From: Bacteroidia bacterium
Lineage (GTDB): Bacteria; Bacteroidota; Ignavibacteria; UBA10030
Assembly: GCA_022180565.1 (NCBI GenBank)
Contig: BQML01000006.1
Location: 2,504-66,503 of the forward strand
Reading direction: 5' to 3'
DNA length: 64,000 nt
Notes under the pieces: generated by a model
Databases searched by the model: none
What the model was told of the DNA's origin: nothing
The model's input: the letters and a program-made list of their open reading frames with translations, nothing else
In this document: in pieces, positions 1-46,252 of the stretch
How the letters are laid out: every line of letters starts with the position of its first letter
Numbering within the stretch: position 1 is the stretch's first letter
Program-made: the position numbers and the translations under genes

Positions 1-406
1 TGAAGCGGTATTCGGAGGTGATTTGATGCCTGATGCCGGCCTTTTCCGCCGCATCGAGAATTTCGCGGGCTTCGGCTTCGTTGAAAGCCAGCGGCTTCTC
101 GCAGTACACATGCTTGCCGTTCTCAATTGCAGCAAGCAGAGCATCCTTGTGCATCCTGTTCGGTGTGCAGATGTTCACAACATCGATGTCGTCGCGCGCA
201 ACAAGCTCCCTAAAATCCGTTGTGCCGAACTCGAAACCGGCTTGTTCGACCCCCTTACGGACCAGAGCCTCATTCGAATCGCAAACTCCTTTGAGGATGA
301 TGCGGCACGGGTTCCCGTCGTAGTACAGGGGAATGGAGCGGTACGCATAGGTGTGAATCCTGCCCATCTGACCGAACCCAATGATGCCGATGCGGAGCTC
401 TTTCAT
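1..406 (-). CDS. Gfo/Idh/MocA family oxidoreductase, runs off the left edge
   Basis: Not in the ORF track. My translation from ATG 406: MKELRIGIIGFGQMGRIH...DIDVVNICTPNRMH...GKHVYCEKPLA (GxGxxG, TP and CEKP motifs). ATGA overlap with the upstream stop. Confidence 0.93.
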   Translation of the reverse strand, partial: MKELRIGIIGFGQMGRIHTYAYRSIPLYYDGNPCRIILKGVCDSNEALVRKGVEQAGFEFGTTDFRELVARDDIDVVNICTPNRMHKDALLAAIENGKHVYCEKPLAFNEAEAREILDAAEKAGIRHQITSEYRF

Positions 407-1257
407 TGTTGGCCTCCGCTGCCGACCATGGCGAGAGCGTCCTTGACGGAAGCACCCTGGTGCACGATTGCCGCGAGGGCATGAAGAATGCCCGAGGGGT
501 GGGCATGCTGCCAGACGTTCCGTCCGAACACAATGCCTCTCGCCCCGGCGTCCATGGCATCTTTGACCATTTGCAGCATGTCCATGTCGGAATCCATCTT
601 CGGACCGCCCCGCACGAGGATCGGAGCCGACGAAAGCGAAACCAGTTGCTCGAATTGCCGGCGCGACTCGGGATAATCGGCCTTGATCACATCGGCGCCG
701 ATCTCGGAGGCCATACGAACGATCAGCTTCATGATCTCGAAATCCCGAACGACATTCGACCCCTTTTGGATTGCGAGGGGTTCAACAATGAACGGAATTG
801 CGTTGACACGGGCTTCTGCGGCAAGAGTAGAGAGAGTGCTGACATTGTCGGCCTCCTGAGCATCCGTGTCGTATCCGGCGAAGAGGAAGGTTACCACGGC
901 ATCGGCCCCGAGCTGGATTGCATCGCGGACCGAAGCGACCTGCGCATAGTAGCCCTCCTTGGGTGCAGGAGATTTTCTCCAGATATTTGTGGCATCGAGA
1001 CGAATCACAACGCCCGGCTTGTCCTTTCCGCGAAAATGGCCCAAGCATGCGCGGGCCGTTCCCGGGGTCATCTGTATGGCATCCGGCTTGCCCGGAAGCA
1101 ACGTTCGCACTGCCGAATCAACGTTTTCCACTCCGGGGAGCGGACCGATAAACAGTCCGTGATCGATGGCCACAACGATCCCGTTTCCGGTGTCAGGGTT
1201 GAGGATTCTTCCGAGACGAAGCTGTGTACCGGCCAAATGGGACATAGGAAACCTCAT
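403..1257 (-). CDS. DhnA-type class I aldolase (FbaB/LsrF/ADH-synthase family)
   Basis: VAIDHG, LGADAV, EIGADVIKADY (Schiff-base Lys), RGG and GIVFGRNVWQ motifs. ATGA overlaps at both ends. Confidence 0.9.
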   Translation of the reverse strand: MRFPMSHLAGTQLRLGRILNPDTGNGIVVAIDHGLFIGPLPGVENVDSAVRTLLPGKPDAIQMTPGTARACLGHFRGKDKPGVVIRLDATNIWRKSPAPKEGYYAQVASVRDAIQLGADAVVTFLFAGYDTDAQEADNVSTLSTLAAEARVNAIPFIVEPLAIQKGSNVVRDFEIMKLIVRMASEIGADVIKADYPESRRQFEQLVSLSSAPILVRGGPKMDSDMDMLQMVKDAMDAGARGIVFGRNVWQHAHPSGILHALAAIVHQGASVKDALAMVGSGGQQ

Positions 1258-3971
1258 TTCTTCGGTTTTGGTGTTTCAACGTCAAGCCTGACGGTCGCGA
1301 TCTCAAAGGGTCTCAACCGAAGCCTGATCGTTCGCCGTTTCATCACACGGACAGGCTTTAACGGCGATTCATCGAGTCTGCACAGAACGGCACTGCGAAC
1401 CGGCAGATAGCTGGTCAACACACCCTGAACCGGCTGTCCGACGGGATTATAGACCCGAACGATCACTCCGCTCCCGGCTTCCGCTTCCTTGATCGTGCTG
1501 AGTTGAATGTTCCCTTCGACCGAAAACCAACTGCGATCGAGCACCGTCTGGTCATTTTTTCGGTTCACCGTGAACGGCGTGACGGTATAGAATTCCGCCT
1601 CCCTCAACACCACGGGCCAGAACACGTCTTCCTCCCCGCCATGCGGCACAAGGGCGTATTCGAAAACATGTCGGCCCAAACACTGTGCTTCCGGCGTCTC
1701 CGTCCACCACCCCGCTGCACCACCAGGGCGCGTGAGAAGGTTGCGTCCGGACAGCTTTCCCACACACCGAAGAAGGGTTAACGAGAGTTTCCCACGCTCG
1801 CGCACTCCCAGTTCGTATTCGGGTAGCCCGCGCGCGAGCAGTGTCAATCCCTTCCGCCCATCCCTCAGCGAGACGAATCTCTTCATCGGTGCCACCAGGG
1901 CGGGATGTTCGTACGGAAACTCCTGCACATCGTATTCACGGTGTGTGCGGTGCACAACGGCAAAAGGCGTTTCGGCAAAGGACTCGACAGTATCAACGCC
2001 CGTGCGGAATATCGCCCGAAGACGATGATCTCTTGCGGTGTTCTCGATTTCAGTTTTCACCTCGACACGCCGCGCATCGGGGGTCAGCATGAGCGTTGTG
2101 GTCAGCGGAAGATCAACCAATTCACCGGATCTTCCCTGTTCATCCGGCGTCGCAGAAACGGGCACGCGCAGGACGATTCCGATCTTCAAGGACACACGGA
2201 GAGGGTTTGCCTCGATAACGGTGATCTTCGCGTTTCCTCCTGAAGAATCGACCATCGTATCATGTTTGGGATAGGAATAGTTGTATTCGTCTCCCACGTC
2301 TCCCGAATCTTCGAACGAATTCAATGGACCGTACCGGACACCGGTCGTCTTGTCCGTCAGCGACCACGAACCGTCGGGATGCACTTCGATCCGAAGGTAC
2401 TTGTTCTCAAGATAATTGTGACCCGCGGAAAGCCCGTCCCGGCTCTCAACGAACGGAGGCACATCCCTGATCACCCTGTATCCCTTCCATCCGAGCGCGG
2501 GAATCTCCTCAGCGTTCATAATGATTCGCCACCTGTCGACGAGGATCTGGCTTGGGTAATCATGCTTCGAATACACGATGCCGAATGTTTCTTTTCGCTC
2601 CAGAACATGGTACGGTACGGGTTTTCCGCCGGAATCCTCCAACCGAAAGCTCTTTGGCCCAGCGAGCTTTGGAGCGACATGAACTTCCGGGTTCAATCCG
2701 ACGACGACGTCCTGCAAGGTGAAATCGACGTGGGCTTCCACAACCTCCGTGCGCGTCATGGGGGAGGGATTGAAAACAAACAGGAAGCGGTCGTCTCCCT
2801 TGGCCTTTTCGTCGTATGGTAAAAGTGCGTTCAGGGACTCCTGGAGGGCAAAAGCACCGATGTTCTTTGCTTTTTCATAGCGGCTCACCATTTCCCGATG
2901 CACTTCGTCGGTGCTCGTTCCGCAAATGGCATCGTGATCGTGATTCTGAATGACATATTTCCATGCCTGCTCGATCTGGGCTGTGATCGACCGCGCCCCC
3001 ATCATCATGGCAAAGACATTCAGAGGATCCACCATCCGTTCCAGAAGATTCTCGCCGGCGGCGTTCATTTGTTTCAGGTACATCCTGCTGGAATACACGC
3101 CGCCCTGGACGACGAATGCATGCCGGTATCCAAACCGCGTTTCACCATTCAGAACGGGGAGTTTTGATGGCTTGATCTCTCGCCGGAGCCTGGAGAAAAA
3201 TTCAGGAAAACTGCTGTGGACCACATTCACACCCAGGCGCTTACGCAGGATTTGGATAGCCCCGGTGACTGCCTCGTCGGGCCAGTGGTGATCCCCGCCG
3301 TTGAAGAACAATCTTTGCGAGGTCGTGGACCGTTCGTCGAGTTCCTTTTGCATCCTGCGGAACTTTCCGATAACGACGCCCTCGTCCTGTGTCCCGAAGT
3401 ATCCCGCGCTATAGCCGTCTTTGGGCATGTGGTGCAAGAGCACCTTCGAGCCATCCGGCCCGATCCACCAGTATTCCGAGGGTTCCTGCCCGGGCTCTCC
3501 GCCGAATCCACGATAGAACATTGCCGTGTCAAGGCCGAAACCGCGAAGGATCTGAGGCATTTGTGCAATATGAGCGAACTGGTCCGGAATGTAACCAATC
3601 TTCATGACGCCCCCGAGGTCTTTTCCATAACGCATACCGAGCAGGAGATTTCGGATCTGTCCTTCTCCGCCCGCAAGGAACTCATCCTGCAAGATATACC
3701 AGGGTCCGATGAAGAGCTTCTTTTGCTTGATGAGTTTTGCGATGGTTTTTCTCCGGTCGGGCCGGATTTCGAGATAATCCAGAACAGCCGCGAGCTGGCC
3801 ATCAAGCGTATAGCTTCTGAAGCCCCGATCCTTTTGGAACATCCCAAGCAAATCTTCGATCATTTCCACGAGCATTGCGCGGAATCGATCAAAGGGGAAG
3901 TACCACTCTCTGTCCCAATGAGAATGGGATACAATGTGATAGGTAGGTTTCTTTGCCTTCGTTGCTTTCAT
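1254..3971 (-). CDS. GH38 alpha-mannosidase (MngB-like), no signal peptide
   Basis: HSHWDREW, LDGQ, GPWYIL.DEF, YIPDQF, NHDHDAICGTS and TLLRCVG motifs. Start moved to ATG 3971 (ATGA overlap). Confidence 0.92.
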   Translation of the reverse strand: MKATKAKKPTYHIVSHSHWDREWYFPFDRFRAMLVEMIEDLLGMFQKDRGFRSYTLDGQLAAVLDYLEIRPDRRKTIAKLIKQKKLFIGPWYILQDEFLAGGEGQIRNLLLGMRYGKDLGGVMKIGYIPDQFAHIAQMPQILRGFGLDTAMFYRGFGGEPGQEPSEYWWIGPDGSKVLLHHMPKDGYSAGYFGTQDEGVVIGKFRRMQKELDERSTTSQRLFFNGGDHHWPDEAVTGAIQILRKRLGVNVVHSSFPEFFSRLRREIKPSKLPVLNGETRFGYRHAFVVQGGVYSSRMYLKQMNAAGENLLERMVDPLNVFAMMMGARSITAQIEQAWKYVIQNHDHDAICGTSTDEVHREMVSRYEKAKNIGAFALQESLNALLPYDEKAKGDDRFLFVFNPSPMTRTEVVEAHVDFTLQDVVVGLNPEVHVAPKLAGPKSFRLEDSGGKPVPYHVLERKETFGIVYSKHDYPSQILVDRWRIIMNAEEIPALGWKGYRVIRDVPPFVESRDGLSAGHNYLENKYLRIEVHPDGSWSLTDKTTGVRYGPLNSFEDSGDVGDEYNYSYPKHDTMVDSSGGNAKITVIEANPLRVSLKIGIVLRVPVSATPDEQGRSGELVDLPLTTTLMLTPDARRVEVKTEIENTARDHRLRAIFRTGVDTVESFAETPFAVVHRTHREYDVQEFPYEHPALVAPMKRFVSLRDGRKGLTLLARGLPEYELGVRERGKLSLTLLRCVGKLSGRNLLTRPGGAAGWWTETPEAQCLGRHVFEYALVPHGGEEDVFWPVVLREAEFYTVTPFTVNRKNDQTVLDRSWFSVEGNIQLSTIKEAEAGSGVIVRVYNPVGQPVQGVLTSYLPVRSAVLCRLDESPLKPVRVMKRRTIRLRLRPFEIATVRLDVETPKPKK

Positions 3972-4918
3972 GAACGCACGTAGGAATCGAACGATCGAAT
4001 GGCCGTCGATGCCCCGACGGCGCTTACACAATCTGCCGCGACCGCATTCGCAATCCCGGCCGCCGTGAACGGATCATGGCCTTTCAACAACGCCGCGACC
4101 ATGCCGGCAACAAACGCATCCCCGGCACCCGTAGTGTCCGCCACCGTGCGAACGCGGACAGCCGGCACATACGCTCCCCTTGCGCCATCGTCAATATAGC
4201 ATCCTCTTGCTCCAAGCTTCACCCCCACGATTCCGCTCTTCATGACTCTCCGCAATTTGCGAACGATGGATTCCACGCTCTTCGCTCCTGTGAGACGCAC
4301 CGCCTCCGCAAAACTCGGCACAAAACAATCCACGGAGGAAAGCAGGGCCATCAGGGGACGTTCGGCCATCCTCGGAGGAATTCCTCCGGTATCAAGCACG
4401 ATCCGGCATCCCGCGTGTTCGCGGATCGTCCGCAAAAGACGGGGCAATTCATCGTGCATTTCGGGAAGAAGTCCAAGATAACCAAACACAAGCCATGAGG
4501 AACGTCGCAAGAGATCGGAATGTGCCAGAACATCCTGAGGGCGGAACCTTGCCATACAGCCGCGTGTATGAAAAAATGTTCGTTCCCCGCTCTTGTCCAC
4601 CGCAACAAAGGTCGCCGAGGTTTGCGCTTCACCATCGACTGTGACGCCCGAGGTCTCGAGGCCGAGCCTCGCATACTCTTGCAACAAGAAACGTCCAAAG
4701 CTGTCGTTCCCCACACGCGTGATTGCACCAATCCGAAAGCCCAGCTTTGCGAGGTCGATTCCGACATTCGAAACATTCCCTCCGGTTGTCATGGTCAGGA
4801 AATCCACCTCGGCCAGACTGCCCTTTCTGGGGGGACGGTGAACATTCACCGGTTTGCCGATGATGTCCACAACGGCAAGACCGGCAACGACGACATCCAG
4901 GTTCGGCGCTTCGCTCAT
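3968..4918 (-). CDS. PfkB/ribokinase family carbohydrate kinase
   Basis: GGNVSNVG, VGND.FG, VKLGARG and DTTGAGDAF signatures. Confidence 0.93.
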   Translation of the reverse strand: MSEAPNLDVVVAGLAVVDIIGKPVNVHRPPRKGSLAEVDFLTMTTGGNVSNVGIDLAKLGFRIGAITRVGNDSFGRFLLQEYARLGLETSGVTVDGEAQTSATFVAVDKSGERTFFHTRGCMARFRPQDVLAHSDLLRRSSWLVFGYLGLLPEMHDELPRLLRTIREHAGCRIVLDTGGIPPRMAERPLMALLSSVDCFVPSFAEAVRLTGAKSVESIVRKLRRVMKSGIVGVKLGARGCYIDDGARGAYVPAVRVRTVADTTGAGDAFVAGMVAALLKGHDPFTAAGIANAVAADCVSAVGASTAIRSFDSYVRS

Positions 4919-4926
4919 ACTTCTCT

Positions 4927-6744
4927 CTATTCGGTCACCCGAAGGGCTTTGAAATCCAGCACACGCCTCTCGCCGCCATGAGTAATCGTCAATCGTTCAC
5001 TTCCGACTTCCGCGTTCAGAAACGGACCTTCGAAGAGGCGGGTTCTCTTCAAATCCACCCTTTTTCCGTTCAGCACCCGGCCATCAGGAAAGGAGAATCT
5101 CATGAGTGCCCCATCGATTGTTCGATATTCAACCGAAACGGTTCCCGGTTTCAGTGTTGCTTTTGGAATGTGTGCCCTCAGTTTTGCTGTGAATTCGTTG
5201 AACGCGCCGATCTCTGCTTTCGACCGTACTTCAACGACGTACCCGTTCTGCAGTTTGTGGCTTCTGAGTCTCCAGTTCCCCATGGGGGGCCGGTCGGTCT
5301 CCATTTCAGGCCTTCCGATGGTGTTCTTGGTCTGCCCGGGCTTCTCATACTCGGCGATCCATTCATACTCCTGCAATGGGTACCATCCGACGTAGGTGTC
5401 TCCTGCGCGGCAGACAATCCATCCGGATGGATCAACACTGCGATGATCAAGCGTCATCGGAAAGAACCCGTCGATATGTTCCGTCGTCGTTCCCGGTTCG
5501 ATGTCGTACAGCACGATCAACGTGTTCTTATGCTGAAACGTGCGTTCAAATGGGGAACTTCCGGTCCATTTGTCCGGATTGTTGTACGTCCCCTTCGACG
5601 CAACAACGTCGGAGATCATCATGCGCTCCTCCTCGGGGAAGAACATGATCAACTCGAGGGCGGACCAGTACGGATGGAGACCAAAGATCGTCGTGTAGGG
5701 TTCGCCGCTCGTGAACCTGACGCTCCAGGTGTGCTGTTGAATGGGCTGAAGAATGCCGCCCTGCAATGAGCTCAGACCGTAATCCTTGGTAATGAAGGAG
5801 TACTTATAGACCGGCGGGTTCTTTTCGCTTCCAAGCCGAATAATATTGCGTACTCTCTTTCGTTCTTTGTGAACGTACGGTTTGGATCGGTCCACCGCCA
5901 CACGATAGATGATGTGTGGGAGACGGTACGATGAGAGCGCAGGCAGGAGGGCCCAGCCGGATTGGGTGGGTTTTCCAGTGCCGAAGTACAGCCAGGCGAA
6001 CGCGGAGGCCTGGGAAAGGAGGGGCTTGTACACCGCCGGCTGATAGATACGGCTGAATCCTCCGATATACTGACCTTCGAGATGGTCCACGGCAAAATCC
6101 GCCAGAAGGTAATCGGCCATCATTCGCCCTCTTGTTCTCATGTCGGCATCCTGCGCAAACTGGGCGAGCAAGACCATGGGAATGACGTACTCCGGCAAAT
6201 AATCCGGCGAATCAAATTCACCCTGTCCGATCGTTGTGGTGATGCGGATCCATTCGATCAGATATTCTTTTGCTTCGATTCGGTTCTCGTCCGAGCTCTT
6301 CCCATTGTACCATTCGGATCCCGGCAACCCCGGCCATTGCTCCGCCGCCAGGAAAAGCGATGCATAGTACATGCACCAGTGGTTTTCCGTGTCGCCCCGA
6401 TACGGAGTGTACGTCTTCCACGCATTCCTCACAGCCGCCCGGGTCTCTTCCGACATCTTGTCCTTTCCGTGCAGGTAGGCCCCCATGACCGGGAACATCC
6501 AAAACATATCGCCGCGGGGCTCCCGCAGGGCCTCGACGAACAGGCTGTCCGCGAGCCTCACATTGTTTCTGGTCGCGTACCGTGCCGCAATCGTGTAATA
6601 GGATGCGGACGTGGAGGTATCAAACGCCGCTACGATGTGCGCGGCCCTTTCTGTGTATTCCCGAAGGTACGTTTCGGGGTCTTGGATCTGGCCGAAGCAA
6701 ACCGCGGCAGCACCGACACAGAGAATGGAGAGGAGTTTCATCAT
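4927..6744 (-). CDS. Secreted uncharacterised protein, predicted (alpha/alpha) toroid + beta-sandwich (lyase-like); paralog of 7760-9529
   Basis: Signal peptide MMKLLSILCVGAAAVCFG|Q. YRGDTENHW, GQGEFDSP.Y and LQPIQQHTW blocks are shared with the paralog. The fold is inferred. Confidence 0.7.
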   Translation of the reverse strand: MMKLLSILCVGAAAVCFGQIQDPETYLREYTERAAHIVAAFDTSTSASYYTIAARYATRNNVRLADSLFVEALREPRGDMFWMFPVMGAYLHGKDKMSEETRAAVRNAWKTYTPYRGDTENHWCMYYASLFLAAEQWPGLPGSEWYNGKSSDENRIEAKEYLIEWIRITTTIGQGEFDSPDYLPEYVIPMVLLAQFAQDADMRTRGRMMADYLLADFAVDHLEGQYIGGFSRIYQPAVYKPLLSQASAFAWLYFGTGKPTQSGWALLPALSSYRLPHIIYRVAVDRSKPYVHKERKRVRNIIRLGSEKNPPVYKYSFITKDYGLSSLQGGILQPIQQHTWSVRFTSGEPYTTIFGLHPYWSALELIMFFPEEERMMISDVVASKGTYNNPDKWTGSSPFERTFQHKNTLIVLYDIEPGTTTEHIDGFFPMTLDHRSVDPSGWIVCRAGDTYVGWYPLQEYEWIAEYEKPGQTKNTIGRPEMETDRPPMGNWRLRSHKLQNGYVVEVRSKAEIGAFNEFTAKLRAHIPKATLKPGTVSVEYRTIDGALMRFSFPDGRVLNGKRVDLKRTRLFEGPFLNAEVGSERLTITHGGERRVLDFKALRVTE

Positions 6745-6755
6745 GATCGCCGTCC

Positions 6756-7763
6756 TTATCGTTCTATCACGATTCTTCCCACTTGTGCTCCCGGTAAGCC
6801 CACCGCACGCCACGTTTCACCCTTGTCGTCCGATCGATACACCCCCGCTCCCATGGTGCCCGCGTAAACACGATTCGGATGCACGGGATCCACGGCAATG
6901 GAATGAATGTGCTCGATTTCGAAACCCTGGCAAGTTCGTTTCCAGGAAGTGCCCCCGTCCGTCGATCGGTACACCCCTGTCGCATATCCTCCCGCATAGA
7001 CGATCGATGGATCCCGGGGATCGTAGGCAATCGTGTAGAATGTTGCGTGGTCAATCCCTGCTTCACGTTTTTCCCATGTTTTGCCGCCGTTGGAAGAAGC
7101 GTAAATCCCATGGTTCTCCGTGCCGGCAAGGAGTGTCAGGGGATCTTTTGGATGTTGGGTGACTGTTCGGGTCCTGTCGATCGAAAGACCGGTCCTCTTC
7201 CATGTCTCTCCGCGATCCGTGCTCTTGTACAATCCTATTTCCGTTGCGGCGTAGAGAATGGATGGATCGAACCGGTCAACAATGACGCAGGAAACAAAAC
7301 CGGTGAACACCTGCTTCCACGTATCGCCCATGTCCGTCGATTTGTAGATCCCGTACGCCGTTCCGATAAACACGTTCATCGAGTCCGTGCGGTCGAGGGC
7401 CACGGCCCAAATCTCTGTAATCCTCCATCCGGTCGTGATCTTCCAGCTGCGCCCGCCGTCCCTCGTCCGATGCAAACCGTTCCCGGATGCCGTGTAACGA
7501 ATCCGCCCATTCACCCCGGGGAACACCGCCAGGGCATTTGCCCGTATGTTTTTCGCTCCCGTGTGATGCCAGACGGTATCCTCCGATGGTTTCTGGAAGA
7601 ACATGCCCGTTTGCGGATTGGCGGCCCCGACGACGAACAATTTTGTCGAAAACACGCTGACGTACACCGTCGGTTCGTCCGTTTGCCCGTAGAGAGACAC
7701 CATGAGGCAAGTCAACAAACCGGCAATGATGACGCTTCTGATAACCATGGCATCTTCTCTCAT
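6756..7763 (-). CDS. Secreted BNR/Asp-box beta-propeller protein (VPS10/GH74-like repeats)
   Basis: Repeated S/T-x-D-x-G-x-T/S-W Asp-boxes (TRDGGRSW, STDMGDTW, STDRGETW, STDGGTSW, SDDKGETW). Signal peptide present. Confidence 0.85.
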   Translation of the reverse strand: MREDAMVIRSVIIAGLLTCLMVSLYGQTDEPTVYVSVFSTKLFVVGAANPQTGMFFQKPSEDTVWHHTGAKNIRANALAVFPGVNGRIRYTASGNGLHRTRDGGRSWKITTGWRITEIWAVALDRTDSMNVFIGTAYGIYKSTDMGDTWKQVFTGFVSCVIVDRFDPSILYAATEIGLYKSTDRGETWKRTGLSIDRTRTVTQHPKDPLTLLAGTENHGIYASSNGGKTWEKREAGIDHATFYTIAYDPRDPSIVYAGGYATGVYRSTDGGTSWKRTCQGFEIEHIHSIAVDPVHPNRVYAGTMGAGVYRSDDKGETWRAVGLPGAQVGRIVIER

Positions 7764-9529
7764 TCCATGATCTCGGTTGTATTGAAATCCAGCGTCCTCG
7801 ATCGACCTTTGTACCGCATGGTAATGCGTCCGCTTCCGCGCTCACTCTGGAGGAACGGTCCCTCAAAAAAACCATAGTCCGTCAGGTGAATCTCTTTTCC
7901 GTTCACCATTCGGGTTCCATCAAAAGAGAAACGCAGATCGACCCCCTGTCGATTGCGGTAGGACAGAGACAGAGTGGTGTTGAATGCGGAGGTGTCCAGC
8001 CGTGTTGTTGCAAGCGATGTCCGAAATGCCTCCCAGGACCCATCCTCACGCTCCGACCCGACTTCAACAATCACACCGTTTTTGAGCTGGTGGCTTCTCC
8101 ACCGCCAGTTCACCGTTTCTTCAATCCACTGCCCGCGCCTCACCGGATGGAGGGCGACGTACACTTTCCCTGCACGGCAGAGGATCCATCCCGCCGATTC
8201 CATGCGTTCATCCAGGTTCTTCGGGAAAAAGCCGTCGATATGCGGATGCATCTCCCCCTCCTTTATATTATAGAGGACGATCAGCGTATTGCGATGCTGA
8301 AACGTCCTTTCGTAAGGGGAGCTGGAATTCCATTTGTCCGGACTCGTGTACACCAGATGGTACCGGTCCACTTCATCGGCCAAAAACTTGATTTCCTCGG
8401 GAAAAAACATGGCAAGTTCCTTTCCCGATGCGTATGGATGAAGAGTGAAGATCGTATTGTTCGGCCTTCCCGATGCGAACGTTACATCCCAGGTATGCTG
8501 TTGAATGGGCTGGAGAATGCCTCCGTGCAGAGAGCCAAGGATGTAATCGGAGGTGACGTAGGTGTATTTGTACACGGGCGGGTTTTTCTCCGTTCCAAGC
8601 CTGATGACATTTCGGACGCGTTTCGTTTCGGTGTGTACGTACGGTTCGGACCGGTCGGTGGCAATGGACCGGATCATGGGCGGAAGACGATAGGAACCCA
8701 AGGCCCCGAAAGCCGTCTCCCAACCGCCCCGGTTTCTGGGACGAAACCGCGCCTCTTCCCACTGTTCAAACTCCGGTTTTCCGAAATAGAGCCAGGCCCA
8801 CATCGTGCTTGGTGCCCCTAAGGGGTTGATGATATCCTCGGGGTAGTCCCTGCTGTGACCGCCTCCGTAATTGCCTTCGAGATGCTCGGCGGCAAAATCC
8901 GCGAAGAGCAGATCCAGCATCATCCCCGCCCTCTTCTTCATCACGGGATCTTCGGCAAACTCATGGAGAACGATCATCGGAGTCAGAAACGTCGTGATGT
9001 ACGTCGGTGAATCGAACTCACCCTGCCCGATTGTGGCGCTTGTGGTCATCCAGTGACCGAGCCATTCGGCCGCTTCCTGAAAATTTTCCTCTGAGGATTT
9101 TCCATTGAACCAAGTGTCCCGGCCCTCTCCCGGCCAGGTCTGTGCCGCCAGGTAAAGGCCCGTATAGTACATGACCCAGTGATTCTCCGTGTCGCCGCGG
9201 TACATCGTGCGGTCCCGAAATGCCAGCCGGACTTTTGCATGGAGCGAATCGGGCAATGCATCCCTCGTGAAGAGATAGGCACCGATCAACGAGTAAGCAT
9301 AGAACATTCCGCCCATCGCCCTGTCACGCGTAAGTGAATCGAGCAGGAGACAGGCGCCCGCCAGGTCCCTTCCGGTGCGAACCTTCGCGGCAATGACGTA
9401 GGGGCTCACTTCGTTCTCGGCGCTGACAACCTCGAGTAATCTTGAAGATCGCACATCAAAGACCGGGTCATCCTGCGCTGTACAGGAACCCAGAACAAAA
9501 CAAACGGCCGCAAGCAGAAGCAGTTTCAT
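7760..9529 (-). CDS. Lipoprotein, uncharacterised toroid/lyase-like protein; paralog of 4927-6744
   Basis: Start moved to ATG 9529 (ATGA overlap): MKLLLLAAVCFVLGS|C lipobox. Same conserved blocks as 4927-6744. Confidence 0.72.
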   Translation of the reverse strand: MKLLLLAAVCFVLGSCTAQDDPVFDVRSSRLLEVVSAENEVSPYVIAAKVRTGRDLAGACLLLDSLTRDRAMGGMFYAYSLIGAYLFTRDALPDSLHAKVRLAFRDRTMYRGDTENHWVMYYTGLYLAAQTWPGEGRDTWFNGKSSEENFQEAAEWLGHWMTTSATIGQGEFDSPTYITTFLTPMIVLHEFAEDPVMKKRAGMMLDLLFADFAAEHLEGNYGGGHSRDYPEDIINPLGAPSTMWAWLYFGKPEFEQWEEARFRPRNRGGWETAFGALGSYRLPPMIRSIATDRSEPYVHTETKRVRNVIRLGTEKNPPVYKYTYVTSDYILGSLHGGILQPIQQHTWDVTFASGRPNNTIFTLHPYASGKELAMFFPEEIKFLADEVDRYHLVYTSPDKWNSSSPYERTFQHRNTLIVLYNIKEGEMHPHIDGFFPKNLDERMESAGWILCRAGKVYVALHPVRRGQWIEETVNWRWRSHQLKNGVIVEVGSEREDGSWEAFRTSLATTRLDTSAFNTTLSLSYRNRQGVDLRFSFDGTRMVNGKEIHLTDYGFFEGPFLQSERGSGRITMRYKGRSRTLDFNTTEIME

Positions 9530-10503
9530 TGTGTCGAGAGGCCCCAGATCTGTCCCTGGTCCTGGCTGTTCAATTTCCATGTCCGTCCCCCATCCGTACT
9601 GCGGTACAAACCGCCGTTCAATGTGCCCGCAAAGACGACGTTGGGGCGTGTTTTCATGACAAGCAAGCAATGCACAACCGGGATCCCGAGGCCCTTCGAA
9701 GAACGCGTCCATCTCTCGCCGCCGTTCACAGTGATGTACACACCGCCTCCATGCGTTCCAGCATAAAGGATGGAGGGATTGTTGGGGTGGACGGCGATGG
9801 CATACACCGTCTGATGCCTGAGGCCCGCGCTCCTCTGCATCCATGTCCTTCCCCCGTCCGATGAACGGAACACCCCGTCATTTTCCGTGCCCACCCACAA
9901 GACCTCAGGTCGAACGGGGTCCTGCACAATCACTCTGATCTGCTTTGCTTGGAGAGCTGTCGGTGCCCATGTTTCTCCCGCATCGCGGCTCATCAGCAAA
10001 CCTTCCTCCGTGGCCGCAAAGATTCGTCGTGAATCCGATCGATCCACGAGGACATCCGACGCAAAGGGCAATTTCAGCCCGAGTGGCTTCTCCTCCCATG
10101 TTTCTCCGGAATCCGCCGTCTTGAATATTCCATACGCTGTCGCGGCGTAGACGGTGGAGGGATCCGATGGATCGCAATCAATCTTCAACACCTCGGTTAT
10201 CCTCCACCCCGTGGTAATGCGCCAGTGTTTTCCGCCGTCATCCGATCGCAGGACACCGTTCCCGCAGGCAGACCAGATTACGCCGTCGGATGCCGCCTCC
10301 GTATAGAAGGTCCTGATGTATTCCTTCCACCCCCGATGCTCCCAGGTCTCTCCGCCGTCGGTACTCACGAAAACACCCACCACAGGGTTGTCGCTCACGT
10401 TCAGTCGGTGCTTGCGGGAACTCAGGACGGACATCACCAGGGTTTCCGTCTGCCCCACCGCCTCCGCTCCCGCTACGGCAAGGACCGTCAGCATGATGAA
10501 CAT
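9526..10503 (-). CDS. Secreted BNR/Asp-box beta-propeller protein; paralog of 6756-7763
   Basis: Asp-boxes STDGGETW, SDDGGKHW, SRDAGETW, SSDGGRTW, STDGGRTW. Shares W.ITTGWRITE with the paralog. Start ATG 10503 lies just after the upstream stop. Confidence 0.85.
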   Translation of the reverse strand: MFIMLTVLAVAGAEAVGQTETLVMSVLSSRKHRLNVSDNPVVGVFVSTDGGETWEHRGWKEYIRTFYTEAASDGVIWSACGNGVLRSDDGGKHWRITTGWRITEVLKIDCDPSDPSTVYAATAYGIFKTADSGETWEEKPLGLKLPFASDVLVDRSDSRRIFAATEEGLLMSRDAGETWAPTALQAKQIRVIVQDPVRPEVLWVGTENDGVFRSSDGGRTWMQRSAGLRHQTVYAIAVHPNNPSILYAGTHGGGVYITVNGGERWTRSSKGLGIPVVHCLLVMKTRPNVVFAGTLNGGLYRSTDGGRTWKLNSQDQGQIWGLSTQ

Positions 10504-10504: not shown

Positions 10505-12829
10505 TTAGATCGCAACACCGATGCCTTCCTTGAGTGCTTTCGCTGAATGGAGTCCAAGACGTTTGCCGTTCACCACGAGAGAGTAGGAGTCGCGGTCCAA
10601 CCCGTCGAACGTCAGCCGGACAGTCCGGGGAACGTTCACGTTGTCGAGAAGATCCAACCAAATCGTGTCGCCCTCCACCAACACACTCGGAATCCTGCAT
10701 CCGTCGATTCCGACCCCCCACTGTCCGCGGACATTGACAAAGGCGTTCCCGTATTTCGGTTCAATGAGGTGAATCGAGACGACGGAGCTTCCCGTTCCCC
10801 AATGGAGACCCGTAACGCCGGCAAGCCTGTCGGCCGCGGCATGCGCGTAGTTCTCAGCGGTTCGGGGAGAGTCGTTCGATTCGAACAGAGAAAACATCGC
10901 TCTCAGGGCCGCAACGCCTCTCTCGAAATACTCGCGGCTCCCCGTGGCCTCAGCATACCGGACAAGCGTCACCGCAAAGTAGCCCTGCCGCGAATCGCTC
11001 CATTCTCCGTCGGTGTTTTGCACGCCAAAGCCTCCCATCAGTTCGCACGACAACCATTCGGGACTCCACATCTGCTGATAGAGACAGAGGTAATCCAGAA
11101 TCCGGGTGCCAAGGGTGATGTACGCCTTGTTCCCGGTGAGCTCATACAGCGACAAACAAGCTTCTGTGGCCTGGTGCATAGAAAGGGTGTTCTGCGGATA
11201 CTGGCCCGTCTTGCTGTCGAACAATGACAATGGTTTACGCGAACAGGAAAAGAATGTCTCAAAGTCAAACCACTTGTTCTTCGGCACAATGTTCGTCGCA
11301 ATATACTCCATGGCTCGCTCGGCAGACTTCAGATACACAGGATCCTTCGTTCTGCGGTACAATTCCGCCAGGAAGAATGCAGCTCCGGCGGTTTCTGCAT
11401 TTTCCTCGCGTAATTCCGGCACGGGCTTGAGCGTGGACGGGTCATACCAGGAGGGGATAACACCCGATGCAAGCTGGTTTCTCACGAGGAAATTACCGAA
11501 CCGACGGGTGCGCCGGATGATCTCGTCCCGACGATCCGGAAGAAGATCGCTCCATCGGAGGAGCCAGAGAGAGGTCCAGGAATTGTGGAACATTGCGTAG
11601 CAAGTACCGTCGCGAATACCTCCCCACGCGTGATCGGCCACCCAGTGTCCTCCGGTACTGTCGAGGAAGAAAATCGACGGCGTCATTCCATCGTATTGCG
11701 GGGCCGAGAGGGCAAGGTTCAGATTTCCCAGCGCCCGCTGTTCAAGCTGTCCGTTACCGGTCTCGCGTGCATGCAAGTACATTCCATAGGCCGTTCGGAG
11801 CGAGTTGAACCACACATTGAACCAGTTGTCATTGTTGGCCGACCGAGGAAGTTTGTTGCTCCAGGAGAGCCGTTCCTGACGGAGCAAAGTCACGGGGGTG
11901 CCCCCATAGACCGTGTCGAGAGCCACGAGGGGTACGAACTGCTCCCAGGCCTTACGTTTATACGAGGCAAACGGTTCAGTCTGCGGGCCGCGGGCGCGAA
12001 GAAAATTGCTCCGGCCGAACTTCTCCCACTGAAACCTCACCACGCTCTGGAATCCGGCGGCCGGAGCCGCGGAGGCATTCACGCAAATGTAGTACCCGAA
12101 CTCCAGCCTTGTACCGGCCTCGATGGTCGCTCGCGTGCTGTCTGAATGGGAATAATACACGTGGCCTTTCTTCTCCCAGGGGAGTAGTCCGAAGGACAGA
12201 TAAGGAAACGGCGGCATATCAACGCGCATATCGGCACCCGAGCGCACGGGTCTTGCCCGACCGTCAAGGGTATGCACGTCGGGAATCAGGGCCGCGAAGT
12301 CCCTTCCCTTTTGAATCATGAACGCCGGTGCCCTGAATGTATGGTCAGCGATCACCTCGTCGTCCTCCGGCCTCAATTGCGGAGTGAATACAAAGTCCAC
12401 GTTGCCCCCCGGAAGAAACGAATAGGTCGAGAGCAGGTGCTGAAGCTCGACCTTTTTCCGGAATTGTGCCGTCACTCTGACATAAACAAACGGGTCGCTT
12501 TCAGTAACCCGAATCGTCTTCTCCATGCGGCCGATCCCGGAATCGGCTACGAGAATGAGCATTCTTCCCCTGTCTGCCAACTCCGCATGAACGTATTCGA
12601 TATGAATGTCGCGCCCTTCGATACGAAGTGATGGATCGCGCCTGGATATGCTTCCGCCGCCAAGAATCTCCTTCCATCTCCCGCCTGATTCCGCCAGATA
12701 GACGACGCGGTAGCCGCTCCCTGCCTGCTCGGCGCGAACTCTTACCCGCCCATTTCCGATCTCCAACTGCCGTGCATCCGTTGAGAAAAGGGCGACGAGG
12801 ATCAGCCCACAACACCTCAATGCTTTCAC
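10505..12829 (-). CDS. Secreted uncharacterised protein with C-terminal six-hairpin (alpha/alpha)6 glycosidase-like domain
   Basis: GTG 12829 (GTGA overlap) gives a signal-like N-terminus. Helical repeats (FLAELYRRTKDPVYL..A, LYELTGNK.Y) and acidic motifs WFDFETFFSC and QNTDGEWSD. Confidence 0.65.
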   Translation of the reverse strand: MKALRCCGLILVALFSTDARQLEIGNGRVRVRAEQAGSGYRVVYLAESGGRWKEILGGGSISRRDPSLRIEGRDIHIEYVHAELADRGRMLILVADSGIGRMEKTIRVTESDPFVYVRVTAQFRKKVELQHLLSTYSFLPGGNVDFVFTPQLRPEDDEVIADHTFRAPAFMIQKGRDFAALIPDVHTLDGRARPVRSGADMRVDMPPFPYLSFGLLPWEKKGHVYYSHSDSTRATIEAGTRLEFGYYICVNASAAPAAGFQSVVRFQWEKFGRSNFLRARGPQTEPFASYKRKAWEQFVPLVALDTVYGGTPVTLLRQERLSWSNKLPRSANNDNWFNVWFNSLRTAYGMYLHARETGNGQLEQRALGNLNLALSAPQYDGMTPSIFFLDSTGGHWVADHAWGGIRDGTCYAMFHNSWTSLWLLRWSDLLPDRRDEIIRRTRRFGNFLVRNQLASGVIPSWYDPSTLKPVPELREENAETAGAAFFLAELYRRTKDPVYLKSAERAMEYIATNIVPKNKWFDFETFFSCSRKPLSLFDSKTGQYPQNTLSMHQATEACLSLYELTGNKAYITLGTRILDYLCLYQQMWSPEWLSCELMGGFGVQNTDGEWSDSRQGYFAVTLVRYAEATGSREYFERGVAALRAMFSLFESNDSPRTAENYAHAAADRLAGVTGLHWGTGSSVVSIHLIEPKYGNAFVNVRGQWGVGIDGCRIPSVLVEGDTIWLDLLDNVNVPRTVRLTFDGLDRDSYSLVVNGKRLGLHSAKALKEGIGVAI

Positions 12830-14451
12830 TTCCGGATCTTCACTCGTTTCAGGATCTTCTGCATATTCAACCCGAACATCTTCTTCTTTTCGTCGACCGA
12901 GCAGTGGGAGTAGGCCATCCATCCGAACTGCGGAATGGGATCTCTCATCGGTTGGTCCGTCCCGAACAAGACCCGGTCGGCTCCGACGTGCTTCACCATG
13001 AACTCAATGACGCGGTAGGTCACCGACGTAAGTGTGATCTCGAGAAACACGTTTTTGTATTTCTTCGCCACTTCGATCGCAAGGCGGGCATCCCTAAAAG
13101 ACGCCCCCGAATGGGCCAGGATGAATGAAATGTTCCTGTAGCGACGGGCCAGGTCGGAAGCCTCCTCGACGACGTTGGGCGAGGGATGAATCAGCGCATA
13201 GGCGTTGATGCTGTTGCCGTAGCGAAACCAGGGGGCCCAGGCCTTGTCATTGTAAGGAATGAATGTACGCGGATAGTATGGTTTTATTCCGCCCATTTTG
13301 CACAGTTTGTACCACAGATCGCATTCCTTTTTCCAGTCCTTCACGTACTGCGGCTGGAGGGATGCATAGCCGTGATAGAAACCCGGATACCGGCGCATGG
13401 CATCAACAATAATCTTGTTTCCCTCGGCGTAGTCCGTCCACACCGCTAAAAACCCGCTCACGCACATGGCATCGATGCCCATGAGCTTTGCGCGCTCCCT
13501 CATGCTGGCCGCATCGCCGTAGGGCTGGTGAAGAAAACCGATTCCCCCGGCGCCGTCGTGGGACATGTGGGCATGGGAATCGATGACAACCATGTCGTCC
13601 AGGGGCTTGCCGTCCTTTGCGCGCTGAAGGATCGAATCCCCGAACCGGTCCTCACCATAGGAGGCAAGCGGCGTTTCAAGCCTGAGGAGTTTCCTGATCG
13701 TGCCTGACGCGATCGCTGCCTTTTGGCTATCGGTTAGGGTGCAGTAATCCACAAACGCCTTGGCGGCACCGGGAGACTTTTCAAGCGCTCCCGTCCCGAA
13801 AACAATCCTGTTGGAGCCGTACCATTCGGAAAACACCTCCATGGCCCGATTTCCCTGATGATTAGAGAGCTCCAGATGCAAGCGCTTGTGCCTTCTCATC
13901 AGAGGCTCTACGTATCGAGTCGATTCCCAGCGGGAGGCTTGAAGGATGACGTTTAAGTACGGATGGCGCGCCAACATGATATCAAGATCGCTGAGGAGGA
14001 CTTGGTTCGTCGGCTCCAGGATGTCCGGATGATAGCAATGGCCGCCTTCGACCATCAGCACAATTTGCTCCTTCTCAAGTTCCGCCAGGAGGTCTCCGCA
14101 GAATTCAGGCGTGAAGGGGTAGCGGTGGGCTCGCGGATACATCTTTGCCGCCCGGATCCCGTGATCCTTCATTTCTCGCACAGCATCCTTCGGTCTTGGG
14201 AATTCCCTCGTGTGATGCGGCATTACGGTCCACACGCCGAACAGGCGAGGGCTCTTTCGTAGCTCATCGAGGAGCATCCGGTTTCCGTAGGTCGGATCAT
14301 ATTCCTTTGCGACCGAGTGGGCGATGAGTGCACCGTGGATCCCGCACCACTCCATCTCCTCCAGCAGAACTTCTGTCTCGTAGGGCGTTTCGACGTCCTT
14401 CGGCCCTTTTCGGCCGACCATGGCATAGCAATCGATGTATTCCCGTGTCAT
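12826..14451 (-). CDS. Tandem two-domain amidohydrolase (Amidohydro_2 x2)
   Basis: C-domain has DSHAH, IHP, LAHSG, VFLE and VLFGTD. N-domain has the same layout with degenerate ligands (DCYAM, FGTG). Confidence 0.82.
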   Translation of the reverse strand: MTREYIDCYAMVGRKGPKDVETPYETEVLLEEMEWCGIHGALIAHSVAKEYDPTYGNRMLLDELRKSPRLFGVWTVMPHHTREFPRPKDAVREMKDHGIRAAKMYPRAHRYPFTPEFCGDLLAELEKEQIVLMVEGGHCYHPDILEPTNQVLLSDLDIMLARHPYLNVILQASRWESTRYVEPLMRRHKRLHLELSNHQGNRAMEVFSEWYGSNRIVFGTGALEKSPGAAKAFVDYCTLTDSQKAAIASGTIRKLLRLETPLASYGEDRFGDSILQRAKDGKPLDDMVVIDSHAHMSHDGAGGIGFLHQPYGDAASMRERAKLMGIDAMCVSGFLAVWTDYAEGNKIIVDAMRRYPGFYHGYASLQPQYVKDWKKECDLWYKLCKMGGIKPYYPRTFIPYNDKAWAPWFRYGNSINAYALIHPSPNVVEEASDLARRYRNISFILAHSGASFRDARLAIEVAKKYKNVFLEITLTSVTYRVIEFMVKHVGADRVLFGTDQPMRDPIPQFGWMAYSHCSVDEKKKMFGLNMQKILKRVKIRK

Positions 14452-15763: not shown

Positions 15764-17776
15764 TCAGGAAAGCTCCACCTCCACGCTTGAATCCATCCCG
15801 ATCATCACGATGAATCTCCTGCCACCCTGCGCTCCGGACACGCGCCACATTCCGTTCTGCTGTGCGATGCCGAGTTCAGGCCGGGGAGAATCGCTTGCCG
15901 ACACCTGACAGGCGGTTAGAATTCCATGCACAGATGCCGGACCATGTTCCACTTCGATGTAGGGAAAGACACCGAGATCCTCGGGAAGGTTCAGTTTCCC
16001 CGTGAGGATCCTCGGATTCGATGAGCCGGCAACGGAGGCATGCAAGAAAACTCCCGGGCGTTCTATAGTGAACGAGTTTTCCAGCGTGCGTCCTCTCCCT
16101 TTCCCGTCCTCGTTGTAGATCTGAAACCGCGCCTGAACCCATCCCGGCGAATCCAACCGCACGCTGTCAAAGAGGATGAGGACATCGGGTTTGACAAAGA
16201 TCATCGTTCGCAACACTTCCCGGACTGTGGGATGAACCAGTCGGTAGGCTTCGGTGGCGTCGCTCGTGGCGACCGTAGAGGTCCCGTTTGCCCGATAGTG
16301 TGTCACCCGCGCTTCGGCCCATGAAGCATTCGTTCCCTCCCTGCCGTCATGGTACTGGTGCCCCTTCCCGTTGATGAGAACCGCCGTATGCGCTTCTGTC
16401 TGCCTGAGCAGCCAGTGCGGCTCCGTGTAGGAATAGGAGGCCTTGAACGGATCGTGCAGAAGTCGCTCTCCCCGGGCTTTCAGGACAATGCTGTTCCGAT
16501 CTGCATGCTCGTGATTTCCCGGCATTCCGCTCCTCATCGCTACCACGGTGCTTGTCACATCGTATCCCGTCCGCGAAATCACGAGATCGTTGGAAAACCG
16601 GACATCGTGGAGCTCCGGTCCCGGCTTTTGCGGTTGGATTGTGGAATCGTACCACACAAGCGCATAGTGACTGCTGACTTCACCGATCTCCAGCGCAACG
16701 AATTGGGCGATCGGGTCGCGGAAGCGCCGGGCGACCCAGGCGGCAACCGACGTGTCGCCGACGACGCTGGCGTCGCCAAAATTCACACAATCCCCGGGTT
16801 TGCCATTCGTTGGCATGGACATGTTCAGGCCGTAGCGAATCGTTCCCGTGAAGTTGATCAAGGAATTCAGATCGATTCCCTGCCGGCGGCCAAGAACCTC
16901 GACAAGAAGAGCCAGGTGCAACACGGTATATCCCCAGTAGCTCACGCCTTCTTCGTAGCTTCCATCCGCCCCGAACATGGGCGCGAACGCCCGCGCACTC
17001 TGAATGGCCAAGTCCATCCATTTCCGGGCCTCAGGATGTTTGTCGGCCAGCAGGGATCCGGCGATACCAAGACCCGCAATAGGAATAACCTTGAGGTTTG
17101 TTGAATTCAGAATGATCGGCCACCGGTTCAGATCGAGCGTATTCCGGAATCGGTAGTCACTGTTCGGATCGATCGTCCAGCCCCTCACGCGGTCGGGATG
17201 CAGCATCCCCCAGAGAGTCCGATAACACGGGGGCGCGCCTTTTTCTGCAATTTGCTTCTCTACTTCCCGTTTCATAGCCGGCGACAGCATGTCGTCCATC
17301 CAATCCAGTGCAAGGGCCATCGCGATCGTCGCTTCAGGAGCTCTCTGGAGGCCGATCACCAGCTCACCGCCTTCGAAAAAATAATCCCATTTGGGATACT
17401 CAAGGATCTTTTCCATCGCCAGCTGGGCAACGGCGTACTGATTGCGGTCTCCGGTGAGAGCAAATGCAAACGAAGTGCGTTCAAGGATTTTCCTCGCCCT
17501 CAGCATGTCGTACACATGGCTGTTGGTCTTTAGTTCGGACCGGAGGAACTTTGCATCGGCTTTCAGGTCTGCCGCAAGAACAGTTTTCCAAAAAGGGACG
17601 AAGCGCGGGTGGCGTACGGTTTCGCGCATGCGATCTTTGTCGGACTCGTCAAACAAAAGACCCGTCGCCAGTCGGGCCGGCGCCGGCTTGGCCAAAGTGT
17701 CGAGCGCACCGAGGGACAGTCCGGCCACAGCAAGGCCTGTGCGGCTCAAAAACTCCCTCCGGGAGGCATTCTTCAT
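15764..17776 (-). CDS. Tat-exported heparinase II/III family polysaccharide lyase-like protein
   Basis: SRREFL Tat motif. DGSYEEGVSYW, NFGD, HEHADRNS and T.AH.AVLING motifs. Confidence 0.82.
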   Translation of the reverse strand: MKNASRREFLSRTGLAVAGLSLGALDTLAKPAPARLATGLLFDESDKDRMRETVRHPRFVPFWKTVLAADLKADAKFLRSELKTNSHVYDMLRARKILERTSFAFALTGDRNQYAVAQLAMEKILEYPKWDYFFEGGELVIGLQRAPEATIAMALALDWMDDMLSPAMKREVEKQIAEKGAPPCYRTLWGMLHPDRVRGWTIDPNSDYRFRNTLDLNRWPIILNSTNLKVIPIAGLGIAGSLLADKHPEARKWMDLAIQSARAFAPMFGADGSYEEGVSYWGYTVLHLALLVEVLGRRQGIDLNSLINFTGTIRYGLNMSMPTNGKPGDCVNFGDASVVGDTSVAAWVARRFRDPIAQFVALEIGEVSSHYALVWYDSTIQPQKPGPELHDVRFSNDLVISRTGYDVTSTVVAMRSGMPGNHEHADRNSIVLKARGERLLHDPFKASYSYTEPHWLLRQTEAHTAVLINGKGHQYHDGREGTNASWAEARVTHYRANGTSTVATSDATEAYRLVHPTVREVLRTMIFVKPDVLILFDSVRLDSPGWVQARFQIYNEDGKGRGRTLENSFTIERPGVFLHASVAGSSNPRILTGKLNLPEDLGVFPYIEVEHGPASVHGILTACQVSASDSPRPELGIAQQNGMWRVSGAQGGRRFIVMIGMDSSVEVELS

Positions 17777-22447: not shown

Positions 22448-22460
22448 GATGCGCTCCGGA

Positions 22461-23270
22461 CTAGGAGGATAGTTCCGCAAGGTACCTGCGGAGGGTTTCC
22501 ACATTCTGTTTGGATTTCTCGATCAGGGGCAGGCAGTGGGTCTCGATGGTGATGTGAGAAACGAGGTCTTCCCGGAGGAGAGCCTCAAGCTGGCCTTTCC
22601 AATCGATCGCCCCTTCACCCACCGGCACACAGCGGATCAACGATCCCTCGAGGGTATCCTTGACGTGGACGTTTCTGACAAATTCTTTGACTGCCTGATA
22701 TCCATCCGGATAAGGCCGTGGCTCGGCACCGTAGGCATTGCAAGGATCCCAATTGGCCCCGAGGTTCTTCTTTCCGGCCTTTTTCAACAGATCGGCTGTC
22801 GTCGCCCCGGAACTGCACCAGAAACCCGGCTCATTCTCGATCGCCAGGTCCATACCCGCCGTTCCTGCGATCTCCGCCGCCCGCCGTATGGCGTCCAGCC
22901 ATAACGATTCCCTCTCTTGGTCCTCATGGTTCTCCCGCTGGAATCCGAACACAATGATCAGGGTTGCGCCCAGTTCTCCGGCGAGATCGATCGTCCGGGG
23001 AAGCGTGTCGAGAATCTCGTGTTCGATTTCCTTCGTCTGGGAAAGTGTATGCTTGAAAATCCCCGGCGAGAGAGCAGAGATGCGTATGCCGCTTTCCCGG
23101 GCGATGCGGCCGACAGATTTGATTTCCGCGGATTGTACAGACGGTACGCGTCCGGACTGGAGCATGCGAAGCTCAACGATCCGGATGCCCCATTCGGCCG
23201 CATACTGTGCGGCCACGGCAAAATCGGGAGAGATTTCGTCGCTGACGATGCCGAGTTCGAGCTTCTTCAT
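22461..23270 (-). CDS. Sugar phosphate isomerase/epimerase (AP_endonuc_2 TIM barrel)
   Basis: SDEI, LAIENE, WDPCN, VHVKD, VGEG.IDW and IETH metal-ligand pattern. Confidence 0.88.
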   Translation of the reverse strand: MKKLELGIVSDEISPDFAVAAQYAAEWGIRIVELRMLQSGRVPSVQSAEIKSVGRIARESGIRISALSPGIFKHTLSQTKEIEHEILDTLPRTIDLAGELGATLIIVFGFQRENHEDQERESLWLDAIRRAAEIAGTAGMDLAIENEPGFWCSSGATTADLLKKAGKKNLGANWDPCNAYGAEPRPYPDGYQAVKEFVRNVHVKDTLEGSLIRCVPVGEGAIDWKGQLEALLREDLVSHITIETHCLPLIEKSKQNVETLRRYLAELSS

Positions 23271-38247: not shown

Positions 38248-38275
38248 AGACGGTATGTTGATGGTTAAAGTATCT

Positions 38276-45999: not shown

Positions 46000-46159
46000 T
46001 GGGCCACCGTGAAAATGGGTATGAAGTCAGAAGAGGTCCTGGCTCATGGTTCAGGGAGATGGATCGCCGCGAGAATCCCCCGAAGCAGGGAGGGTACATC
46101 GCTGGAGCTGGCGATGCGGAACTGAAGGATTACACCGCTCTTCCCCTGACACGATGAGA

Positions 46160-46186
46160 GGGCGGTCCTGGTTTCCCGGACCGCCC
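46160..46186 (-). terminator. GC-rich hairpin after porV (terminator or mRNA stabiliser)
   Basis: GGGCGGTCC-9nt-GGACCGCCC, extendable with GATGA/TCATC; U-tract poor. Confidence 0.5.
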
Positions 46187-46252
46187 AGTCATCCATTCGT
46201 CGTCGACGAACCTTGTGCCGTGTTCAGCCGACAACCGGCGAAGGCCGGCGTC

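Follow-up and report, generated by a model that had tools for sequence, protein, structure and literature searches.

A duplicated pair of genes for a propeller and a protein of predicted lyase fold

We analysed a window of 64,000 nucleotides from Bacteroidia bacterium (GTDB Ignavibacteria, UBA10030; assembly GCA_022180565.1, contig BQML01000006.1, positions 2,504 to 66,503), in which four open reading frames (ORFs) of the minus strand follow one another in the order A-B-A'-B'. A (P0001, 9526..10503, 325 amino acids, with an alternative upstream GTG start at 10518) is an exported Asp-box beta-propeller, A' (P0003, 6756..7763, 335 amino acids) is a second Asp-box propeller, and B (P0002, 7760..9529, 589 amino acids) and B' (P0004, 4927..6744, 605 amino acids) are proteins of predicted lyase fold, representing a His-230-type and a Phe-230-type paralogue respectively. 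The start of B overlaps the stop of A and the start of A' overlaps the stop of B, both as ATGA start-stop junctions, while 11 nt separate A' from B'. The four genes sit within a long same-strand series of sugar-catabolism genes and are the sole such copies in the genome. B and B' are 46 % identical over 622 columns (E 0.0) and A and A' 42 % identical over 313 columns (E 2e-78), and the duplication is therefore old.

An earlier note on this DNA had described the same gene order, and the ORFs bear it out. All five motifs that it listed for B and B' (YRGDTENHW.MYY, NGKSS.EN, GQGEFDSP.Y, GILQPIQQHTW and HIDGFFP) are present in both copies, and the W.ITTGWRITE motif common to the propellers reads WRITTGWRITE in A (10192..10224, minus strand) and WKITTGWRITE in A' (7413..7445, minus strand), where the structural model described below places it in contact with the 142-161 region of B'. 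We also recognised by eye the two export signals that the note had reported. The N-terminus of B, MKLLLLAAVCFVLGS-C, carries a lipobox LGSC ending at Cys16 (9482..9493, minus strand), which is not conserved among orthologues, and B' begins with a Sec-type signal.

Pairing of the B family with a propeller

Neither B nor B' matched a Pfam or NCBIfam model, and searches of PDB sequences with the B' sequence and a 110-row profile (phmmer or profile) returned no chain at E ≤ 10. Sixty-five B-family proteins compared with Pfam at E ≤ 1 matched no lyase model, including Lyase_8, and gave only scattered unrelated weak matches. The family is thus unnamed, as had been proposed, and falls in no characterised family of Pfam, NCBIfam or the PDB sequences, a set that does not cover CAZy. 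It comprises 2,242 representatives at 50 % identity (E ≤ 0.001), and 1,736 of 7,996 scored candidates were near-length homologues. B occurs in 93 of the 301 genomes of the class and in 10 of 200 other genomes drawn evenly across the phylum, and its named relatives are Ignavibacteria-type Bacteroidota. Word searches of the open-access literature found no paper on the B family or on a propeller-partnered lyase.

Most of the B genes surveyed are paired with a propeller. All 17 B genes of the evenly drawn phylum sample have an adjacent or fused propeller, as do 59 of the 66 B genes of the class survey (56 adjacent, 3 fused, 7 unpaired), which covered 60 regions hand-chosen across families. These came from 54 of the other 92 genomes of the class that have B and from one genome outside it. 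Among the closest GTDB loci, a set biased to kin and with three loci counted twice, a propeller lies within 1.6 kb of 106 of 113 B copies. Of the five genomes in which a B is unpaired, four have a family-level A at another place; in the fifth there is no A, but the contig ends 15 nt past B. These neighbourhood surveys answer the concern that homologues might mostly lack an adjacent propeller. Among 150 listed representatives, 20 are fused to a propeller, in one case at the C-terminus, so that both orders occur, and the 19 fusions placed on a tree fall at about nine spots (FastTree, support values not inspected).

Co-folding of A' with B' gave a score of 0.85 in three runs, with a best control of 0.00; as a rough calibration with custom alignments, 116 of 157 solved complexes and 2 of 215 mismatched pairs reached this mark. 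The runs share at least 86 % of contacts, with a partner pLDDT of at least 90. Since no listed solved chain spans both a propeller and a lyase-type domain, recall of a known complex by the co-folding is unlikely. A natural propeller-B fusion was modelled by AF2 as a rigid assembly (pTM 0.92) across a disordered linker. Together with adjacency and the fusions, these models support the two-subunit design put forward in the earlier note.

In the co-folded model residues 106-113 of A' contact B' 142-149 and 157-161, which brings together a propeller motif and a B motif singled out before, and the conserved A' positions 117, 136-137 and 155-156 contact B' 302-303 and 370. The predicted main contact is the B' loop 142-149 (GSEWYNGK, 6298..6321, minus strand), which is missing in propeller-less branches, accompanied by Arg303 (5836..5838, minus strand), which is modelled against A' 136 and 156. 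Arg303 is present in 19 of 19 propeller fusions, whereas among representatives fused to other modules 2 of 10 have it. Conservation in A is nominally higher at interface positions than elsewhere (0.65 versus 0.53). The propeller is predicted to grip the inserted loop, which lies between the Asn-His pair and the Tyr of the candidate active site, in addition to Arg303 and residues 370-375. Once docked, it may stabilise the cleft or form a wall of it, the toroid having a short N-terminal part.

A and A' match the BNR/Asp-box and Sortilin-Vps10 models. The best PDB sequence and fold matches of A are GH74 xyloglucanases; YCF48, DAIP and sortilin, which are non-catalytic, protein-binding relatives, match as well. 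A resembles all of these Asp-box seven-bladed propellers (GH74 halves, YCF48, DAIP, sortilin) in sequence and fold, and the titles of the YCF48 and DAIP entries name complexes with peptides or protein fragments; unlike them, A consists of one small propeller, carries the family-specific motif W.ITTGW.ITE and is genomically tied to B. GH74 enzymes are defined by two tandem seven-bladed propellers in one chain, whereas A and A' have 325 and 335 amino acids against about 700-790 for the GH74 matches. GH33 sialidases possess an invariant Arg triad; among 68 A-type sequences no Arg occurs in the invariant or ≥ 90 % conserved columns. Glu117, Glu175, Glu216 and Tyr243 of A are 88-97 % conserved, and all four lie inside the predicted B' interface. 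A third propeller clade, A'', is found between B and A' in many relatives (L036, L041-L044, L051, L070, L077, L089 and others); it is absent from the window and is the sole propeller before B' in L046 and L047.

The claim that the two subunits are obligate does not hold across the family. In propeller-less branches the catalytic motifs are retained while the docking loops are missing: in 20 distant representatives N121, E176, Y182 and R232 (B' numbering) are each kept in 20 of 20, and the docking loops in 0 of 20. The latter figure is circular, as this outer group was picked by eye from the missing loops; independent figures for the link between loop and propeller come from the fusion-defined groups and from the separate long branches of the outer group in the tree. 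None of the outer-group representatives match A, and several carry F5/8, CBM9, dockerin or LamG modules. A metagenome scan for one distant branch yielded four loci only, and in three outer-type metagenome loci, one of them cut near its end, no propeller gene was seen. The claim is further weakened by the 7 of 66 unpaired class genes and by the many loci with three propellers per two B genes. From sequence comparison the catalytic-type domain can exist without a propeller.

Predicted fold and candidate active site

The AF2 model of B' (110 rows; pLDDT 94.9, pTM 0.94) predicts a helical domain (residues 23-284) and a beta-sandwich (290-605), corresponding to an (alpha/alpha)n toroid followed by an antiparallel beta-sheet domain. 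Every Foldseek match shown for this model is a polysaccharide lyase (PL) of PL8/12/15/17/21/33/35 or dermatan sulfate epimerase, with 8-11 % identity. The best VIA match is heparinase III (5jmd; Z 12.7, root-mean-square deviation (rmsd) 6.2, 391 aligned), and the next are PL12 and PL8 entries with Z of 10.7-11.7. PL40 is absent from the fold matches shown, which does not exclude PL40. B is therefore placed in this clan by its predicted fold, yet by sequence it is a member of no library family tested, CAZy not being among these.

Within 70 diverse rows, E120, N121, H122, E176, D178, S179, Y182 and R232 are kept at 83-96 %. The candidate carboxylate neutraliser and base is Asn116-His117 in B (9179..9184) and Asn121-His122 in B' (6379..6384), and the candidate general acid is Tyr177 in B (8999..9001, possibly acting as acid/base) and Tyr182 in B' (6199..6201), all on the minus strand. 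The spacing from Asn to Tyr is 61 in B'. Of 98 rows, 77 have a spacing of 59-61 and 14 one of 52-53, and these 14 belong to the branch without the loop 142-149. For known lyases, the distance from the neutraliser Asn to the catalytic Tyr is 53-63 residues (PMC12088678, Table 4; PMC12915356). In heparinase II His202 acts as base, 55 residues before Tyr257 (PMC12088678, Table 4), and this is where His122 of B' would sit. A hand-made register puts the LQPIQQHTW motif of B at the place of the beta-domain His loop; His357, the most widely kept beta-domain His, is Gln or Asn in 14 of 59 core rows. This lyase-like character had been suggested from the Asn, His and Tyr residues, and the predicted fold and the conservation of these residues are consistent with it.

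We compared B with the His/Tyr lyases that combine a toroid and a beta-sandwich, namely PL12 heparinase III (5jmd, 4mmh), PL15 (3a0o, 6lja), PL17 (4nei), PL21 heparinase II (2fuq), PL33 (8r6z), PL35 GAGases (8khv, 8khw), PL39 (6jp4) and PL40 Uly1040. Like them, B has a predicted two-domain fold and an Asn-His pair followed 52-61 residues on by an acidic residue and Tyr (PMC12088678, Table 4; PMC12915356). Unlike them, it shows no sequence match to the group and has a separate or fused propeller partner, seen in no listed solved chain. The neutraliser-type Asn stands at 121 in B' compared with 186-245 or later in these lyases, and the N-terminal toroid is therefore shorter in B. The PL8 chondroitin AC, hyaluronate and xanthan lyases (1cb8, 1egu, 1x1h) gave the top TM-scores with B' (0.44; Z 10.9, rmsd 5.2, 428 aligned) and share the spacing, which is 59 in ChonAC II; Lyase_8 is also the nearest named Atlas cluster to B (0.77), a lead only. 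B differs from PL8 in that the PL8 His nine residues before Tyr (His233/Tyr242; PMC12088678, Table 4) corresponds to Gly173 in B', a Gly kept by 69 of 70 rows.

One family of single-copy B genes (f45; L120, L126, L129, L132, L142, L156, L167) has the ENH motif changed to EHE/EHK-type sequences with the propeller still paired, and its B is flanked by a murA-like gene on one side and the gene of a secreted BNR protein on the other; it is possibly a repurposed, non-lyase branch.

Divergence of the two paralogues

B and B' form separate clades (FastTree, support values not inspected). A-clade genes precede B and A'-clade genes precede B', a match that is shared operon descent and no proof of co-evolution. 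Position 230 is Phe, Tyr or Leu in 41 of 41 B'-clade rows and His in the other 50. The switch residue is His225 in B (8855..8857, minus strand), and in B' it is the first residue of Phe230-Ser231-Arg232 (6049..6057, minus strand), where Phe replaces His beside the near-invariant Arg232. We considered His230 as a family-wide catalytic base and rejected it, the position being Thr, Ser, Arg, Asn, Phe or Gln in other branches. In L083 (5680-11668) both B-family genes belong to the B' clade, which suggests that B was replaced there.

The anchored and soluble forms that the earlier note read as a design did not survive comparison, and we rejected this explanation. A lipobox stands at the signal end in 2 of 29 B orthologues, a third regular-expression match falling mid-signal, and likely lipoboxes are sporadic elsewhere, including one B' (by eye); anchoring is therefore incidental. 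B and B' may differ instead in substrate preference, with His or an aromatic residue at position 230, and not in location.

Genomic neighbourhoods

A tblastn search of plasmids gave 25 weak B matches, 24 from Rhizobiaceae and one from Thioclava. The homologue from Rhizobium 3841 aligns along the whole B profile (HHalign 99.6 %, E 2e-24) and keeps ENH, E.NS..Y, R, QQH and HP. This protein, RL_RS36345 (L107:7849-10371, plasmid pRL12), is unannotated, 840 amino acids long, with an N-terminal extension and no visible signal peptide; it directly precedes GH88 and GH28 genes, and 200 plasmid records match it. Seven of the 25 loci were opened. A GH88-family (GH88/105) gene directly follows the B homologue in six of these, the next gene in the seventh not being resolved, and KduI is nearby in two and GH28 in three. 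The four stretches that carry annotation contain no further annotated lyase. A propeller was seen in none of the opened loci, which are mostly kin and not independent cases. The GH88/105 and KduI neighbours of these distant homologues offer indirect evidence, at the level of gene context, that is suggestive of lyase chemistry.

Closer to the core family, a UGL-like gene of 458 amino acids matches GH88 structures at E 9e-13. In six fetched loci it is no more than three genes away from B, and a 64 % homologue of it is found on contig C13 of the same genome as the window. This contig holds a second island (L178:1-11393) with a divergent GH88-like gene missed by PF07470, together with genes that resemble by eye those of an SDR, a symporter, a UroD-like protein, a kinase and an aldolase. 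The genome also has a KDPG aldolase.

Within the window, all on the minus strand, a PfkB kinase, a GH38 and a class I aldolase (403..4918) lie directly downstream of B'. Directly upstream of A is an 805-amino-acid protein with a weak GH76-like match (10505..12922), highly conserved at this place in family and order; a PDB profile search with it gave no meaningful match, and it is possibly another unnamed glycosidase family. The same gene run includes a heparinase II/III-like protein (P0006, PL15/PL35-related, 15764..17776) with a Tat-like signal, a GNHEHAD loop and NST where an Asn-His pair is expected. A further gene encodes a GH15-like protein without a Pfam match (20261-22504), homologues of which make a symporter-GH15like-A-B block in families f46 and f9. 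Two large proteins (36667-38514 and 39100-41094) have no Pfam or NCBIfam match, and their homologues recur beside B in distant genomes. The stretch 42214-53007 encodes a 1261-amino-acid lyase (Alginate_lyase, Hepar_II_III_C and CBM9), a PorV-like protein, an 859-amino-acid unknown protein and a TonB-dependent receptor, and is likely the uptake end of the same island. A protein of about 410 amino acids with weak ferritin-like matches, encoded just beyond the left end of the window on contig C6 and at L021:414-1718 (minus strand), keeps its place downstream of the operon, together with FAH-hydrolase and enolase-superfamily genes. A gene of about 440 amino acids lies between A and B in L026, L044 and L072 and before B in L061, where it matches trehalase/GH63-like Pfam models; the other copies are similar by eye.

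Discussion

From sequence conservation and predicted structure we consider it rather probable that B and B' are exported lyase-type enzymes, each with a docked non-catalytic propeller, which have become two specialised paralogues. Their substrate is likely an acidic microbial glycan. Asn121/His122 and Arg232 would hold the uronate carboxylate, His122 or Tyr182 would take the C5 proton and Tyr182 would protonate the leaving group; the 4,5-unsaturated products would then pass to GH88-like hydrolases and on to cytoplasmic kinase and aldolase steps.

A number of observations weigh against this reading. The fold matches are distant (TM 0.29-0.44, identity 6-11 %) and the top Foldseek E-value belongs to an epimerase. 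P0006 has the beta-domain H-x-H-x-D motif of PL12/15/17/21/35/39/40, whereas in B it is not recognisable. An HHalign comparison between the B profile and the neighbouring heparinase II-like family was not significant (probability 0.1 %), so that the putative catalytic roles rest on motif and spacing. Families f45, f53 and f55 have lost Asn-His, f45 and f53 while retaining the propeller and the single f55 gene without one. Besides the seven unpaired B genes of the class survey, L112 carries a tandem of three core-type B genes without a propeller within 17 kb, and co-folding covered the A':B' pair alone. The genome carrying the window (marker completeness 100 %, 111 contigs) gave no match to PF07470, KduI or UxaC, and its GH88-like gene could be accounted for by the classical lyase P0006 in the operon. 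The genes most often found next to core B in the class are not uronate genes; they are of the GH15-like, symporter, Gfo/Idh/MocA and AP_endonuc_2 types.

Some of these points would sit as well with other chemistries. B or B' could be a uronate C5-epimerase or another non-cleaving glycan-remodelling enzyme, with the 230 switch separating lyase from epimerase, which we regard as unlikely. Human dermatan sulfate epimerase 1 (6hzn), which has the fold predicted for B, is the Foldseek rank 1 by E-value, and the His-to-aromatic change is fixed in the B' clade (41/41). That E-value is however effectively tied with those of lyases, the epimerase falls to rank 35 by VIA Z, it shares 9 % identity and is eukaryotic and biosynthetic whereas B lies in catabolic loci, and the GH88-family neighbours point to unsaturated products. 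There is likewise a small chance that B eliminates from a non-uronate activated sugar, such as an oxidised keto-glycoside supplied by the neighbouring Gfo/Idh/MocA dehydrogenases. AP_endonuc_2 and Gfo/Idh/MocA genes stand directly before B in several lineages, a levoglucosan-dehydrogenase-like gene follows the operon in relatives, and the absence of UxaC and KduI from the genome would fit; B however has an export signal, whereas the dehydrogenases show none by eye, and it retains the neutraliser-type Asn-His motif. The known lyases of the keto-glycoside pathway are moreover TIM-barrel or DUF1080 proteins.

The role of the propeller can be questioned in two ways. It would be itself an enzyme, a GH74- or sialidase-like tailoring hydrolase, and the pair a two-enzyme complex, if its best match to GH74 xyloglucanases and its four highly conserved residues reflected catalysis. 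We find this improbable given that A is one propeller of about 310 amino acids, that the 68 sequences lack an invariant Arg, that all four residues are in the predicted B' interface and that the non-catalytic YCF48, DAIP and sortilin also match. Least of all do we expect A and B to share only an operon and a target glycan without forming a stable complex. The unpaired B genes, the three propellers per two B in many loci and the existence of propeller-less homologues would be in keeping with such independence, but fusions in both orders, the co-folding pass, the rigid fusion model, the distribution of Arg303 between propeller and other-module fusions and the family-level A elsewhere in four of five unpaired-B genomes all argue for a physical partnership.

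Lyase-type enzymes with docked propellers thus remain our preferred reading, and a more far-reaching form of it can be put forward tentatively, as possible though not probable. B would represent a new polysaccharide lyase family whose core branch is a true heterodimer, in which the loop and an Arg plug recruit the propeller to complete the cleft of the shortened toroid, and B without its propeller would be inactive or altered in specificity. Interchangeable A, A' and A'' together with the 230 switch would adapt the two paralogues to separate linkages of one microbial glycan, or make one a lyase and the other an epimerase acting on it.

The B family is large yet without annotation. The toroid lyases among the structure matches are single chains, so that a lyase with its propeller as a second subunit would have an architecture new to the clan. 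With its propeller-bound, fused, carbohydrate-binding-module-fused and propeller-free branches the family constitutes a natural experiment, and the presence of the distant member RL_RS36345 in the culturable Rhizobium 3841 makes its chemistry directly testable.

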